A stretch of DNA of 34,044 nt from positions 1 to 34,044 of the forward strand of contig JBGSHK010000014.1 in the NCBI GenBank assembly GCA_041752275.1, in the 5' to 3' direction. The notes under the pieces are model-generated. The model was not told the DNA's origin, did no database searches, and was given only the letters and a program-made list of their open reading frames with translations. This DNA is from Minisyncoccia bacterium (GTDB lineage Bacteria > Patescibacteriota > Minisyncoccia > Phycocordibacterales > CAIZLB01). This document shows positions 1-25,193 of the stretch, piece by piece; positions within the stretch are counted from its first letter, which is position 1, and the number at the start of each line of letters is the position of its first letter. Position numbers and translations under genes: made by a program.

Positions 1-177
1 AAAAATGGTTATATAGTATCCACAACAGGTTCAGGATCTATTGGTAATGAAACAACATATTTTGGTCCCGCAACTCAAGCTGCTTTGATAAAGTTTCAAA
101 AAGCTAATAACATATCACCGGCAGTTGGTTATTTTGGCCCTATAACAAAAGAACTTGTAGAAAGTTTAAGTAGATAG
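1..177 (+). CDS. C-terminal fragment of a peptidoglycan-binding-domain protein (runs in from outside the window)
   Basis: Frame 1 reads KNGYIVSTTGSGSIGNETTYFGPATQAALIKFQKANNISPAVGYFGPITKELVESLSR* (TAG 175-177). FGPATxxALxxFQ...GYFGPxT is the PG_binding_1 pattern, also seen in the 11430..15206 protein. Confidence 0.85.
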   Translation, partial: KNGYIVSTTGSGSIGNETTYFGPATQAALIKFQKANNISPAVGYFGPITKELVESLSR

Positions 178-3942: not shown

Positions 3943-4018
3943 TGGTGCAAGCACTAGGATTCGAACCTAGGACCGGTCGTGTATAAGACGACTGCTCTAC
4001 CAACTGAGCTATGCTTGC
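3943..4018 (-). tRNA. tRNA-Ile with anticodon UAU (76 nt, CCA encoded)
   Basis: Reverse complement GCAAGCA TA GCTC AGTTGGTA GAGC A GTCGT CTTATAC ACGAC CGGTC CTAGG TTCGAAT CCTAG TGCTTGC ACCA folds into a full cloverleaf; anticodon TAT at 3985-3983. Confidence 0.93.
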
Positions 4019-8938: not shown

Positions 8939-9329
8939 GGGGATGACCGGATTCGATATATAGATCTTTAACACATATGCGTAACCGAGTACCCTCAAAT
9001 CTCGTTAAACTTTGAGGAACTCTATGTGCTAAAACACAAAAAGCTGTTGCATCCTCTTTTGGATTCAACACTTTCGCCTTTGCTAGAGCGTAAGCTCTCC
9101 CTTAGGTGACATCTTACTTTTATCTACTTTGTGTAAAGGTTAGGGTGTAATATAGCAGAGTAAGGTTAAGGTGGTAATCTTGAACCTCAACCGAGATTAA
9201 AGACAAGTTTATATGATGTTTGGATATGTATTTATAATCATATAAATGAAGTTTGAAAACATATCTATGTTACGTAGATGTATGTGTTATACCTATATAG
9301 ACGAGGGTTCAACTCCCTCCATCTCCACC
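8939..9329 (+). ncRNA. ssrA: tmRNA (one-piece)
   Basis: 5' GGGGATG...GGATTCGA pairs with 3' CATCTCC-ACC including the G3-U70 Ala identity pair; T-arm GAGGG-TTCAACT-CCCTC; tag ORF with stop in AGAGC-GTAA-GCTCT hairpin; smpB nearby. Confidence 0.95.
9028..9093 (+). other. tmRNA tag reading frame AKTQKAVASSFGFNTFAFARA*
   Basis: GCT resume codon after PK1-like region, open to TAA 9091-9093 in a hairpin loop; the exact resume codon is inferred. Confidence 0.7.
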
Positions 9330-9378
9330 GATTAAAATACCAGATATGAAAATTTTCATGTCATGGTATTATTAAAGA

Positions 9379-21745: not shown

Positions 21746-23428
21746 ATGACAATAATCTTTGATGAAGATAAGAAAAATCAACAACTAAGACAAATGAGAC
21801 AAGAAGAGGATGAAAGGCTTGTTATGATGTTATCCGATCGACATTCTATACCATATATAAACCTGTCTACTGTTTCAATAAACACAGATGCACTTAGGCT
21901 GTTGGAGCAAGAAACAGCAAAGTCTTCGGAGTCAGTTATTTTTGATATTGTTGGAAAAAAAATAAGCTTAGCAATATACAATCCGCAAAATCCAAAACTT
22001 GAAACCGTTGTTGATGATTTAAAAAGAAAGGGTTATGAAATAATTTTTTATATAACATCTGTATATAGTTTAGAAAAGGCATTTGCTTTATATAAAGATC
22101 TTTCTTTTGCTGTTGAAACGGAGTCTGGTTCTTTAGATATATCAGATGTTGAAATAGAAAACCTTATAAATAAAACAGAAAATTTAAATGATATAAAAAC
22201 CTTTATATCAGAAGCTTTACAAGAAAAAAAGAGTCATAAGTTGTCAAAACTTTTAGCTATTATAATGGCTGGTGGTCTCGCTATAAAAGCATCCGATATA
22301 CATATAGAGGCAGAAGAGTCTTATTCAAAACTAAGATATCGTATAGATGGTGTTCTTATAGATGTTTGTCAATTTGACACAGAAACATATCATTCCCTTT
22401 TATCTCGTTTAAAACTTTTATCTGGACTTAAAATAAATATAAAAGAAAATGCACAGGATGGAAGATTTACTATAAAAATATATACGTCAGATATAGAAAT
22501 ACGTGTGTCTACTATACCAGGATCATATGGTGAGTCTATAGTTATGCGTATATTAAATCCAAAATCAATATCTTCCGGTCTTGAAGACCTTGGTATGTCA
22601 AAAAAACTATATGATGTTGTTATAAGAGAAATAAGTAGACCAAACGGTTTAATACTTTTAACCGGACCAACAGGTTCAGGAAAAACAACAACATTGTATG
22701 CTTTTCTTAAAAAGACCATGTCGCCTGAATATAAAATAATAACAATAGAAGATCCTGTTGAATATCATTTACCTGGCATAGTTCAAACACAAGTTGAAGA
22801 GCATAAAGGTTATACATTTGCAGATGGTTTAAAGTCAATACTCAGACAAGATCCTGACATAATACTTGTAGGAGAAATACGTGATAGCGAAACAGCAGCA
22901 ACTGCAATACAAGCATCACTTACAGGTCATTTGGTTTTTTCAACACTACATACAAACAATGCAGCAGGAACATTTACAAGACTAATAGATCTTGGTGCAG
23001 ACCCAAAAACATTAACATCATCACTACATCTGGCTGTGGCACAAAGACTAGTGAGAACACTGTGTCCTGTATGTAAAAAACTTTTTGATTTGAATGAAAA
23101 AGAAAAAGAGATAATAGAAAAAATAATAAATTCACTCGAGGGGTATGAAGAAAAAAATGAAATAAAAGAATTTCCAAAACAAATACATAAAGCTGTTGGT
23201 TGTGAAAAGTGTAATAACACTGGCTACAAAGGCCGTATAGGAATACATGAAGGTATACTTTCAACAGAAAAAATAGAAAACATAATAGCAACAGGTCCAA
23301 GTGAAAGAGAAATAATAGAAGCTGCGTCGGATCAAAAACTAATAAACATGAAACAAGATGGAGTTTTAAAAGTTTTAAGAGGAATAACTTCCTTGGATGA
23401 AATAGAACGTGTTGTTGATATGTATTAA
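21746..23428 (+). CDS. GspE/PilB family type IV pilus assembly ATPase
   Basis: ASDIHIE, QDGRF, TGPTGSGKTTT, TIEDPVEY, LRQDPDIILVGEIRD, TGHLVFSTLHTN, CPVC...CEKC zinc motif. Confidence 0.95.
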   Translation: MTIIFDEDKKNQQLRQMRQEEDERLVMMLSDRHSIPYINLSTVSINTDALRLLEQETAKSSESVIFDIVGKKISLAIYNPQNPKLETVVDDLKRKGYEIIFYITSVYSLEKAFALYKDLSFAVETESGSLDISDVEIENLINKTENLNDIKTFISEALQEKKSHKLSKLLAIIMAGGLAIKASDIHIEAEESYSKLRYRIDGVLIDVCQFDTETYHSLLSRLKLLSGLKINIKENAQDGRFTIKIYTSDIEIRVSTIPGSYGESIVMRILNPKSISSGLEDLGMSKKLYDVVIREISRPNGLILLTGPTGSGKTTTLYAFLKKTMSPEYKIITIEDPVEYHLPGIVQTQVEEHKGYTFADGLKSILRQDPDIILVGEIRDSETAATAIQASLTGHLVFSTLHTNNAAGTFTRLIDLGADPKTLTSSLHLAVAQRLVRTLCPVCKKLFDLNEKEKEIIEKIINSLEGYEEKNEIKEFPKQIHKAVGCEKCNNTGYKGRIGIHEGILSTEKIENIIATGPSEREIIEAASDQKLINMKQDGVLKVLRGITSLDEIERVVDMY

Positions 23429-23434
23429 AAAAAA

Positions 23435-23456
23435 TTATTAGTCAATTGACTAATAA
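23435..23456. terminator. Perfect 22-bp palindrome, probable minus-strand terminator or operator
   Basis: TTATTAGTCAA-TTGACTAATAA flanked by A tracts (U tract on the minus strand). Confidence 0.5.
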
Positions 23457-23482
23457 AAAATAAAAACATATTATAAAAAAAG

Positions 23483-23642
23483 AATGACCCTTTGAATCTC
23501 CAAGCAAAACTTTTTTCGTTAAGAAAAAAGCTCAATATGTTTTCAAGGATAGCCTCAGGAATATAGCAAGCTATACACCAAAGCGTCCTCTAACTCATAC
23601 CAAATCCCGGAGGGATATTGCTTGGAGACTCAAAAAGTCATT
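23483..23642 (-). ncRNA. 160-nt structured RNA candidate (possibly divergent 6S RNA)
   Basis: 25-bp closing stem fully paired on the minus strand (3 G-U), two short hairpins and a long irregular arm, followed by a U tract. Confidence 0.7.
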
Positions 23643-23689
23643 AACAATTTATAATTCAACTATAAAAAGTATAGCATATTGCTATCACC

Positions 23690-24700
23690 ATGTCAAGCGA
23701 CTTAAAAAACAACAAAAAAGCACCTGAAGATAAGGTTTTAGATCAAACTCTTAGGCCTGATTCTTTTGATCAATACATAGGGCAGGAAAATATAAAAAAT
23801 AATCTAAATATTCTTTTAAAAGCAGCTAAAGGTCGCAATCACAGTCCTGAGCATATATTGTTTTATGGGTCTCCAGGTCTCGGAAAGACCACTTTGGCAT
23901 ACCTCATAGCAAAAGAGATAGGTGCCCAGATGAAAGTCACGTCAGGGCCGGCCATAGAGCGTGTAGGAGACCTTGCTTCTATACTTACAAACCTTTCACC
24001 TGGTGATATTTTGTTTATAGATGAAATACACAGACTTAACAAATCAGTTGAAGAAATACTTTATCCAGCAATGGAGTCTGGTCAAATGGATATTATAGTA
24101 GGAAAAGGTCCGGCAGCCAGAACTATACAGTTGGACCTTCCCCCTTTTACCCTTATAGCAGCAACAACACGTGTAGCAATGATATCATCACCTTTGCGCT
24201 CACGTTTTTCTGGCGGTGTTTTTAAGCTTGAGTTTTATACAGATGAAGAAATAGATTTTATAGTTAAAAGATCAGCAAAAATACTTGATATAAAGTTAGA
24301 TAAAAAAGCTTCTGTATATATAGCAGAGAGAAGTAGAAAAACACCAAGAACTGCAAACTATCTTTTAAAGAGATGTCGTGATCTTGCACAGGTTTATGAA
24401 AAAGATTTAGATGAAGATATAGTTATAGAAGCATTAAACATGATAGGTACAGATAAAATGGGTTTAAATAAATCAGATATAGATTTATTGGAGACAATTA
24501 TAAATAAATATAAAGGTGGACCTGTTGGTTTATCAACCATAGCTGCCTCACTTTCTGAAGATGAAGCGACTATAGAAGATTTTAATGAACCTTATCTTAT
24601 ACAGCTAGGTTTTTTAAATAGAACACCAAGAGGTAGAGTGGTTACAGAACTAGCATATAATCACTTAAATATACCTTATACAAAAAATGAAATCTCTTAG
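23690..24700 (+). CDS. ruvB: Holliday junction branch migration helicase RuvB
   Basis: LRPDSFDQYIGQ, GSPGLGKTTLA, TSGP, FIDEIHRL, EEILYPAME, EPYLIQLGFLNRTPRGR. Confidence 0.97.
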   Translation: MSSDLKNNKKAPEDKVLDQTLRPDSFDQYIGQENIKNNLNILLKAAKGRNHSPEHILFYGSPGLGKTTLAYLIAKEIGAQMKVTSGPAIERVGDLASILTNLSPGDILFIDEIHRLNKSVEEILYPAMESGQMDIIVGKGPAARTIQLDLPPFTLIAATTRVAMISSPLRSRFSGGVFKLEFYTDEEIDFIVKRSAKILDIKLDKKASVYIAERSRKTPRTANYLLKRCRDLAQVYEKDLDEDIVIEALNMIGTDKMGLNKSDIDLLETIINKYKGGPVGLSTIAASLSEDEATIEDFNEPYLIQLGFLNRTPRGRVVTELAYNHLNIPYTKNEIS

Positions 24701-25193
24701 TAATAAAATTATTATATCAATAGATCCTGGTTATGAGAGACTTGGTGTATGTATTTTAAAAAAAGAAATAAAAACAAATAAGATAAGTATTTTACATTCT
24801 GAATGTTTTAAAACTGATAAAAATATATTGTTTCAAGACAGACTTTTAATAATAGGAAAACATATAGAAAATCAAATAAAAAAATATAAACCTTCCAACA
24901 TGTCCATAGAAAGTTTGTTTATGGGTAAAAATCAAAAAACAGCCTTTAAAGTAAATGAGGTTAAAGGTATGTTGATATATATCTCTAAGAAAAATAACTT
25001 AAAAGTATTTGAATATACACCTTTACAAATAAAATCAGCGGTTACAGGTTCAGGTAAAGGTGATAAAAATTCTATACAAAAAATGCTTTTTTTACTTTTA
25101 CCTGAACTAAAACAAACAGTAAAAAAAATAGATGATGAGTATGATGCTATAGCCTGTGGATTAACACACTTTGCATTCGAAAGAGGTATGTGA
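24687..25193 (+). CDS. ruvC: Holliday junction resolvase RuvC
   Basis: SIDPGYERLG, SIESLF, EYTPLQIKSAVTGSGKGDK, DDEYDAIA. Confidence 0.93.
   Translation: MKSLSNKIIISIDPGYERLGVCILKKEIKTNKISILHSECFKTDKNILFQDRLLIIGKHIENQIKKYKPSNMSIESLFMGKNQKTAFKVNEVKGMLIYISKKNNLKVFEYTPLQIKSAVTGSGKGDKNSIQKMLFLLLPELKQTVKKIDDEYDAIACGLTHFAFERGM

Follow-up and report, generated by a model that had tools for sequence, protein, structure and literature searches.

The DNA that we analyzed, called the window here, is a stretch of 34,044 nucleotides from a Minisyncoccia bacterium (GenBank assembly GCA_041752275.1, contig JBGSHK010000014.1, positions 1 to 34,044 of the forward strand); between a gene for a PilB-like secretion ATPase and ruvB it contains, on the minus strand, an RNA gene with its core at 23483-23642 that is almost certainly both real and new. 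To judge from its sequence, the RNA fits no described family, and its gene has the marks of a stand-alone small RNA gene, that is, a predicted promoter of its own, a predicted terminator of its own, and a covarying structure on the predicted transcribed strand. For its function we favor, with a probability of roughly one half, a protein-binding RNA that acts in trans, with a gene that also interferes with the transcription of ruvB. A preliminary description of the locus, made from the letters of the window, had offered two identities, a divergent 6S RNA and a new class of non-coding RNA of the candidate phyla radiation (CPR); the second is upheld (the RNA covaries, is single-copy, has promoter and terminator, and has no match in Rfam) and the first is not, as set out below.

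The core (~160 nt) is built around a closing stem of 25 contiguous pairs: by hand pairing of the minus strand, 23642-23618 (the 5′ strand of the stem) pairs with 23507-23483 (the 3′ strand) through 22 Watson-Crick and three G-U pairs, and on the plus strand the three G-U pairs are A-C mismatches. The minimum free energy (MFE) fold of the minus strand (ViennaRNA, 23650-23475) contains the same stem and has an energy of -70.7 kcal/mol (z -8.20; 0/200 shuffles are as good); the plus-strand fold (-52.9 kcal/mol, z -7.6) is 18 kcal/mol worse, its stem broken at the A-C positions. Inside the closing stem the minus-strand MFE fold has three arms, making a four-way junction whose adjacent helices are separated by one unpaired base or none. 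The arms are hairpin 1 (23604-23616, minus; AUCCC-UCC-GGGAU), which is variable in sequence and length; a long bulged arm (23532-23603, minus) with a conserved core, a variable apex and, in this genome, a CUUG cap; and hairpin 3 (23509-23531, minus; AGCUUUUUU(C)-UUAAC-GAAAAAAGU(U)), which has a stem of 9-10 base pairs (bp) of the CUUUU.../...AAAAG type. Directly after the closing stem, a 3′ tail of one C and a tract of seven U residues (23475-23482, minus; U tract at 23481-23475) gives the RNA an end like that of an intrinsic terminator; the primary transcript is probably ~185 nt long, running roughly from 23661 to 23475. The preliminary description had recognized the uninterrupted stem, the one-sided mismatches, the inner hairpins with the bulged arm, the U tract with a sequence element upstream, and the location between a pilus ATPase gene and ruvB; all of these agree with our results. 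The element is the longest inverted repeat in the window.

The structure is supported by covariation in two sets of homologs. A degenerate pattern taken from the long-arm core, searched in one genome per species (185,579 species), matched 55 places, and 53 of these are homologs, in metagenome-assembled genomes (MAGs) labelled Paceibacterota, Parcubacteria, Nomurabacteria and similar; of the others, one place is cut by a contig end (L065) and one, in a Sphingomonadales record (L084), is a chance match to the pattern. As this pattern constrained part of the long arm, we built a covariance model, R1, with which matches could be collected independently; a broader model, R3, was used as well. In the pattern-found alignment (RNAalifold; the 53 homologs and the sequence of the window's own genome, labelled G000, 54 sequences altogether), 30 of the 47 predicted pairs vary on both sides, 96.0% of the cells pair, and the covariation score is 0.491 versus 0.201 in shuffles. 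In the model-found alignment, which consists of 67 sense-strand matches from the order and the class, 43 of the 49 pairs vary on both sides and 93.2% of the cells pair; the score is 0.604 versus 0.207 in shuffles (0/500 reach 0.604) and at most 0.147 when the partners are slid by 1-3 columns, controls that overstate significance because the alignments consist of related sequences and follow the model to which they were fitted. Despite this relatedness, the per-pair tables contain many independent pair types. When each of the 67 sequences is folded singly, exactly three arms are found inside the closing stem in 60.

Conservation is distributed unevenly over this fold. In the closing stem, 23 of the 24 modelled pairs vary on both sides somewhere among the 67 sequences; the inner pairs are identical in 49-67 of the 67, and the inner ~16 bp (AAUCUCUAAGCAA type) are near-invariant in sequence throughout the class. 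The long-arm core has the form AGGAC-G..UGG-UG / UUCC-U-G..C-UA-UCCU, with fixed G-U pairs, a bulged U and a C/YA internal loop; it recurs, with changes, in the matches found by the covariance model alone. All six modelled pairs of hairpin 3 vary on both sides. The segment of hairpin 1 is left unpaired by the covariance model; in 64 of the 67 homologs it folds into a hairpin with 3 bp or more, with a mean energy of -3.7 kcal/mol versus -1.0 kcal/mol for shuffles, and hairpin 1 is absent in homolog L101 and apparently also in the distant form in genome G230. The three terminal loops are all variable, with stable tetraloops frequent among them (e.g., CUUG, UUCG, UUUA and others at the apex of the long arm; in hairpin 3 mostly 4 nt in other genomes, such as UUAG, CUAG, UCCG and CCCA), and the junction-proximal sequence is fixed.

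The strand can be read from the same data. Several G-U pairs are fixed or frequent among the homologs when the minus strand is paired, and A-C is rare; the sense match outscores the antisense match in every locus listed (148.4 versus 41.7 bits in G000), so the suggestion that the G-U pairs of the window mark the RNA strand extends to the homologs. Because of this asymmetry, the model scores, and the promoter and U-tract that lie on that strand, we read the RNA from the minus strand. If the locus were instead a plus-strand leader or riboswitch in the ruvB mRNA, this would suit the position directly upstream of ruvB, a plus-strand promoter-like site at 23446-23474, and the ability of the plus strand to fold; we consider it very unlikely, since there the fixed G-U pairs turn into A-C, the antisense model scores ~100 bits lower in every locus, and both promoter and U-tract lie on the minus strand.

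By BLAST, the element has matches at 75-94% identity in 16/17 further genomes of the genus and weak matches in three more genera. R1 matched 129/151 genomes in a sample of the order (118 families, evenly sampled) and 34/151 in a class-wide sample; R3 matched 4/151 in a phylum-wide sample (G000, G112, G230 and G430). G112 and G230 are class members that R1 missed and R3 recovered, and in both the RNA lies between ruvB and pilB. The match in G430 (30.2 bits), the only one outside the class, has no ruvB or pilB nearby and a weak fold, and we treat it as chance. As far as R1 and R3 see, the RNA is confined to the class. One of the pattern-found places, L083, is on a 276,871-base contig labelled as a Burkholderiales MAG (JAMPXW010000001.1) and is a typical Paceibacteria pilB-RNA-ruvB locus; that record may be mislabelled or mis-binned.

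In G000 (734,256 bases in 36 contigs, 95% complete) the element is single-copy by BLAST of the whole assembly, the remaining matches being short, with E ~0.2 or more; among the 129 matched genomes of the order there is usually one locus per genome. Three genomes have a second copy. In G085 two RNA copies (83.7 and 62 bits) stand in tandem in one pilB-ruvB spacer (G085:C1:65111-65491; L210 3012-3392). In G054 (C9:70801-70961; L208) and G169 (C42:2964-3141; L209) a diverged second copy lies away from pilB and ruvB, scoring 59.5 and 67.8 bits, respectively; the neighbors are GAF, YqeY, RmuC and Mur ligase in the former and PLD, PAP2 and a response regulator with a histidine kinase in the latter, and these two settings have no common theme. 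The 25-bp terminal inverted repeats might recall a mobile element (a miniature inverted-repeat transposable element) or a DNA-level inverted repeat or cruciform that has no role as RNA. With one copy per genome, a fixed orthologous position, compensatory changes that show the G-U asymmetry, and 0 matches to the core pattern in viral contigs, we give this explanation practically no chance.

Almost all homologs have the same genes on either side. In the window, the pilB-like gene for a type II/IV secretion ATPase (21746-23428, plus; PF00437, T2SSE, E 1.5e-118) converges on the 3′ end of the RNA, and ruvB (23690-24700, plus; RuvB_N, AAA_lid_4 and RuvB_C domains) diverges from the RNA gene and is followed by ruvC (24687-25193, plus; RuvC domain); the RNA gene is thus opposite in orientation to both neighbors. 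Among the 55 pattern-found loci, an open reading frame (ORF) of the ruvB type is directly upstream and divergent in 54 and one of the pilB type is downstream and convergent in 52; the exceptions include two loci that have another gene downstream and two that are shortened by a contig end (L064 and L065). The loci examined from the order sample have RuvB in 28/29 and PilB in 28/29, and those from the class sample have RuvB in 26/28 and PilB in 27/28. In eight loci the RNA ends right beside the pilB stop codon or runs into it (gaps of -11 to +4 nt).

The predicted promoter of the RNA (23668-23696, minus) is near-consensus for sigma-70: TTGACA at 23696-23691, a 17-nt spacer and a TG-extended -10 element, TGcTATACT, at 23676-23668, with 11/12 consensus matches and the TG present. 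Its last -35 bases are the complement of the ruvB ATG (23690-23692). On the scale of promoter scores devised for this analysis, a strong site (score at least 10) occurs within 120 nt upstream in 51 of the 67 homologs, versus 4/67 in the opposite-strand control; 47 of these 51 have a perfect TTGACA and 48 are TG-extended, and when the upstream window is widened to 330 nt a promoter-like site is found in 67/67 loci. The coincidence with the ruvB start recurs among the homologs: with ruvB starts assigned from sequence alone by the longest-ORF rule, 35 of the 65 loci that have a ruvB ORF place the first in-frame start codon at offset +4 relative to the -35 hexamer (TTGA-CAT, read as Met-Ser), and in five further loci of the 65 an inner ruvB start has the same offset. 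The promoter of the RNA appears to dictate the N terminus of RuvB. In many species RuvB begins Met-Ser-Ser, and GCTTGACAT read backwards gives ATG TCA AGC (23690-23698 in the window, and in homologous loci).

Assuming the usual spacing from the -10 element, transcription would start near 23661-23660, leaving a putative 5′ leader at 23643-23661 (minus). Because the distance from the -10 element to the stem varies among homologs (3-89 nt), the leader is not conserved. A subgroup of loci (e.g., L034, L053, L059 and L080) has an extra small hairpin and a U-run between promoter and closing stem, ~30-60 nt upstream of the core, possibly an additional 5′ element or an attenuator. At the other end, U-rich tails follow the stem in most homologs; our simple terminator scan passed over the 3′ end of the RNA because it considers only loops of 3-8 nt.

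A second promoter-like site faces the RNA gene from its 3′ side (23440-23474, plus; TTGACT at 23446-23451, 17 nt, TATTAT at 23469-23474; 10/12). Its TTGACT is part of a perfect 12-bp palindrome, AGTCAATTGACT (23440-23451), just past the pilB stop codon; the palindrome is kept in 17/17 sequences of the genus, and 10 of the 67 loci have its core, TCAATTGA, in the 130 nt that follow the RNA. The palindrome could be an operator. If the plus-strand site is used, the ruvB leader in G000 and its family would be fully complementary to the RNA. A site of the form TTGAC[TAGC]-16..18-TAnnnT is present on the ruvB strand downstream of the RNA in 13/67 loci; a strong promoter at this place is not general, a score of 10 being reached in 5/67 versus 3/67 in the control.

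These features bring in the most serious of the alternatives, that the locus is a cis-acting module in which the RNA, or its mere transcription, regulates the neighboring genes and the structure serves only stability and processing. The possible routes are a head-on collision between its strong promoter and ruvB-ruvC transcription, pairing of the RNA with a ruvB leader or a pilB 3′ end made from the opposite strand, or use of the closing stem as a two-way terminator or insulator separating pilB and ruvB. This interpretation is possible, and we hold it as a minority one. It would account for a position that is invariant throughout the class, for the 35-40 of 65 loci whose -35 hexamer shares bases with the start codon of ruvB, for the 3′ ends that reach the pilB stop codon in eight loci, and for a strong ruvB-strand promoter in the 120 nt upstream of the RNA in just 4/67; in G000 and its family the facing site at 23446-23474 would moreover make the ruvB leader an exact complement of the RNA. 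Against it, an antisense RNA needs no conserved sequence, as both strands change together, whereas the inner stem and internal loops are near-invariant throughout the class; selection acts on the minus-strand fold (the G-U pairs and the ~100 bits between strands); only 13/67 loci have the ruvB-strand promoter; extra copies exist away from ruvB; and in G000 the RNA leaves the ribosome-binding region of ruvB uncovered. The comparison with CopA and RNA I, the cis-encoded antisense RNAs of plasmid copy control, whose stable stem-loops make the first contact through their loops, gives a mixed picture: a strong promoter facing the neighboring gene, a highly structured RNA and, in G000, possibly full complementarity to a leader are shared, but in the pilB-ruvB RNA the helices and not the loops are conserved, the gene is chromosomal and class-wide, and the facing promoter occurs in 13/67 loci only.

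We searched for the RNA among known families. At gathering thresholds, Rfam 15 finds only transfer-messenger RNA (tmRNA) and one tRNA in the window and nothing on the locus; a permissive scan of the locus gives three chance-level matches (E 0.15-6.8, far under the gathering scores), and 20 loci of distant homologs give 0 matches. The tmRNA of the window is at 8939-9330 (plus, 116.6 bits) and the tRNA at 3946-4018 (minus, 73.2 bits). ARAGORN finds 0 genes in 23350-23800, that is, no tRNA-like or tmRNA match there. The RNA is absent from the literature that we searched, which includes few of the subscription journals. RNase P (contig C8) and 5S rRNA (C4) have their genes elsewhere in G000, which removes both as candidates. 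A Y RNA (YrlA, the partner of Ro/Rsr) has a long terminal stem and a multi-arm, cloverleaf-like module, and in these respects it is similar; we rejected this identity, as G000 lacks a TROVE/Ro protein (PF05731), the RNA has no Rfam or tRNA-like match, and its terminal stem has no conserved bulge.

The resemblance to 6S RNA (SsrS; RF00013) that underlay the first proposal of the preliminary description is real in outline: the RNA is ~165 nt long, a similar size, with a long closing stem, a long apical arm, a strong promoter of its own, one copy per genome and a wide distribution in its lineage, and plausibly it too is a protein-binding decoy. In addition, RF00013 finds no 6S RNA in all of G000 at E <=1. 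However, 6S RNA has an open central bubble, and at this place the pilB-ruvB RNA has a tight four-way junction with two hairpins (hairpin 1 in 64/67 homologs and the covarying hairpin 3); its closing stem is perfect and conserved in sequence, and its position beside ruvB is fixed. The Rfam 6S families give no match to the locus at E <=10 and none to the 20 distant-homolog loci at E <=0.1. RF00013 does find 6S-type RNAs in CPR genomes: it matches 22/151 genomes in the phylum sample (seven above the Rfam cut-off), 0/22 of them near ruvB or pilB, and 7/151 in the class sample, and both G228 (with the pilB-ruvB RNA at 104.7 bits) and G230 have an RF00013 match together with the pilB-ruvB RNA.

A separate 6S-type RNA can be proposed for G000 as well. 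A model, R2, built from 13 CPR matches to RF00013, none from G000, has a single match in that genome (C15:13679-13832, minus, 32.1 bits, E 0.005; locus L177:1501-1654, outside the window), and a motif search independently found the same place. The C15 RNA folds with a closing stem, a 5′ bubble strand of ~18 nt, a GGGAG...CACCCACC apical stem and a hairpin in the 3′ side of the bubble, has a TATAAT box upstream, and is conserved with compensatory changes in the closing stem in 4/5 genus genomes searched. In the order sample R2 matches 70/151 genomes, of which 63 are also positive for R1 at a different locus; all 20 R2 matches with E <=1e-5 belong to R1-positive genomes, and 31 R2-type sequences fold into the common 6S outline. 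RF00013 itself counts against the 6S label for these RNAs, since on the C15 locus and six 6S-type loci of the order it gives no match at E <=1 and listed only G230 (35.9 bits) and G228 (25 bits). From R2, the shared motif and the fold, we infer that the C15-type RNAs are the 6S-type RNAs of these genomes. Because it has no central bubble and no RF00013 match, and because a separate 6S-type RNA exists in the same genomes, the pilB-ruvB RNA is not a 6S RNA by our assessment; that it is a divergent form binding the sigma-70 holoenzyme is highly improbable.

The signal recognition particle (SRP) might appear to leave a role open, as we detected no SRP RNA (RF00169, 0/61 genomes; RF01854, 0/31), and a divergent SRP (4.5S) RNA was considered. 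The protein partners are missing too: G000 has neither an SRP_SPB domain (PF02978) nor an SRP54-type GTPase (Ffh/FtsY), a scan of all its ORFs of at least 150 amino acids for the GTPase motifs gave none, and PF00448 is found in 1/61 genomes of the order, 0/151 of the class and 0/101 of the phylum, with 14/14 control genomes positive. The one match in the order (41 model positions in a frame of 941 amino acids) we read as a stray partial P-loop. A passage in Moreira et al. (2021; PMC8080830) describes two SRP subunits as absent in many CPR bacteria. A conserved GNAR loop, sought in the apical loops of the homologs, was not found, and these loops are variable. Because Ffh/FtsY were not found, the SRP interpretation fails, and we assign it a negligible probability.

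We return to the interpretation stated at the outset, in which the RNA acts in trans by binding a protein and its gene also interferes with ruvB. In the mechanism that we propose, the RNA would be abundant, to judge from its near-consensus promoter. Its perfect 25-bp stem, its variable leader, and the presence of an RNase III gene in G000 suggest processing, and RNase III may trim the RNA inside the stem. The product would then bind a protein, as a scaffold or a decoy. Because the junction-proximal core is fixed while the terminal loops vary, recognition of the core, most simply by a protein, is suggested; the binding surface would be the junction region, made up of the inner part of the closing stem, the long-arm core (AGGAC/UAUCCU-UGG/CUG) and the hairpin 3 stem, with the terminal loops left free. 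At the DNA level, an RNA polymerase on the RNA promoter, or firing from it, would oppose the transcription of ruvB-ruvC; mutual interference is predicted because the ruvB start codon shares bases with the -35 hexamer and the two genes lie head-on. Such an overlap of promoter and start codon also suffices, as a neutral cause, to explain that the RNA gene and its neighbors are never separated.

A more specific version of protein binding would have the RNA imitate a Holliday junction with its fully paired four-way junction and bind or titrate RuvA, RuvB or RuvC, comparable to the mimicry of an open promoter by 6S RNA. At most one base is unpaired between the junction helices, 60/67 homologs keep the four-way topology, the bases adjoining the junction do not vary, linkage of the gene to ruvB holds across the class, and ruvA, ruvB and ruvC are all present in G000 (ruvA elsewhere in the genome); if true, the RNA would play in recombination the part that 6S RNA plays in transcription. 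We nevertheless think it unlikely. It is drawn by analogy; RuvA and RuvC recognize junctions of B-form DNA, and the arms of an RNA, being A-form, have another geometry; the overlap of promoter and start codon explains the linkage too; and hairpin 1 is missing in L101 and seemingly in G230.

Several points weigh against the trans-acting, protein-binding interpretation or the evidence on which it is built. Strict linkage to ruvB and pilB is what would be expected of a purely cis-acting element. With E <=0.001 and strict filters, 22/151 genomes of the order sample and 117/151 of the class sample have no match. The extra copy in G169, away from ruvB, has no evident promoter or U-tract and may be decaying. 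Besides the leniency of the covariation controls noted above, the long-arm core was the search pattern for the first 54 sequences, so its invariance there is partly imposed by the search itself. Finally, public runs (three RNA libraries and a doubtful fourth, X15, that is probably DNA) yielded contigs of 155-262 nt, at depth 2-3.2, that are near-identical to parts of 23396-23718; these are too short and shallow to indicate strand, ends, level or transcription.

As a class, the pilB-ruvB RNA is best compared with the orphan structured bacterial RNAs that came from comparative genomics, such as raiA, OLE and ROOL, all of which are in Rfam. Like these, it is defined by covariation and conservation, is restricted to a lineage, and is without a known function at its discovery; unlike them, it occupies one genomic position and is much smaller than OLE or ROOL, and it has no match in sequence or structure to any of them. 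Less specific than the Holliday-junction mimic, though also bold, would be the idea of an RNA subunit in a housekeeping ribonucleoprotein particular to Paceibacteria.

The Paceibacteria (Parcubacteria) are among the largest groups of uncultivated ultra-small bacteria and have genomes of ~0.5-1 Mb. An RNA gene that most of the sampled genomes of the order keep, in genomes otherwise so stripped, must do something important, and the presence of a separate 6S-type RNA and the lack of SRP remove two obvious identities for it. The promoter built into the ruvB start codon provides a concrete, testable link between this RNA and the expression of ruvB and ruvC.

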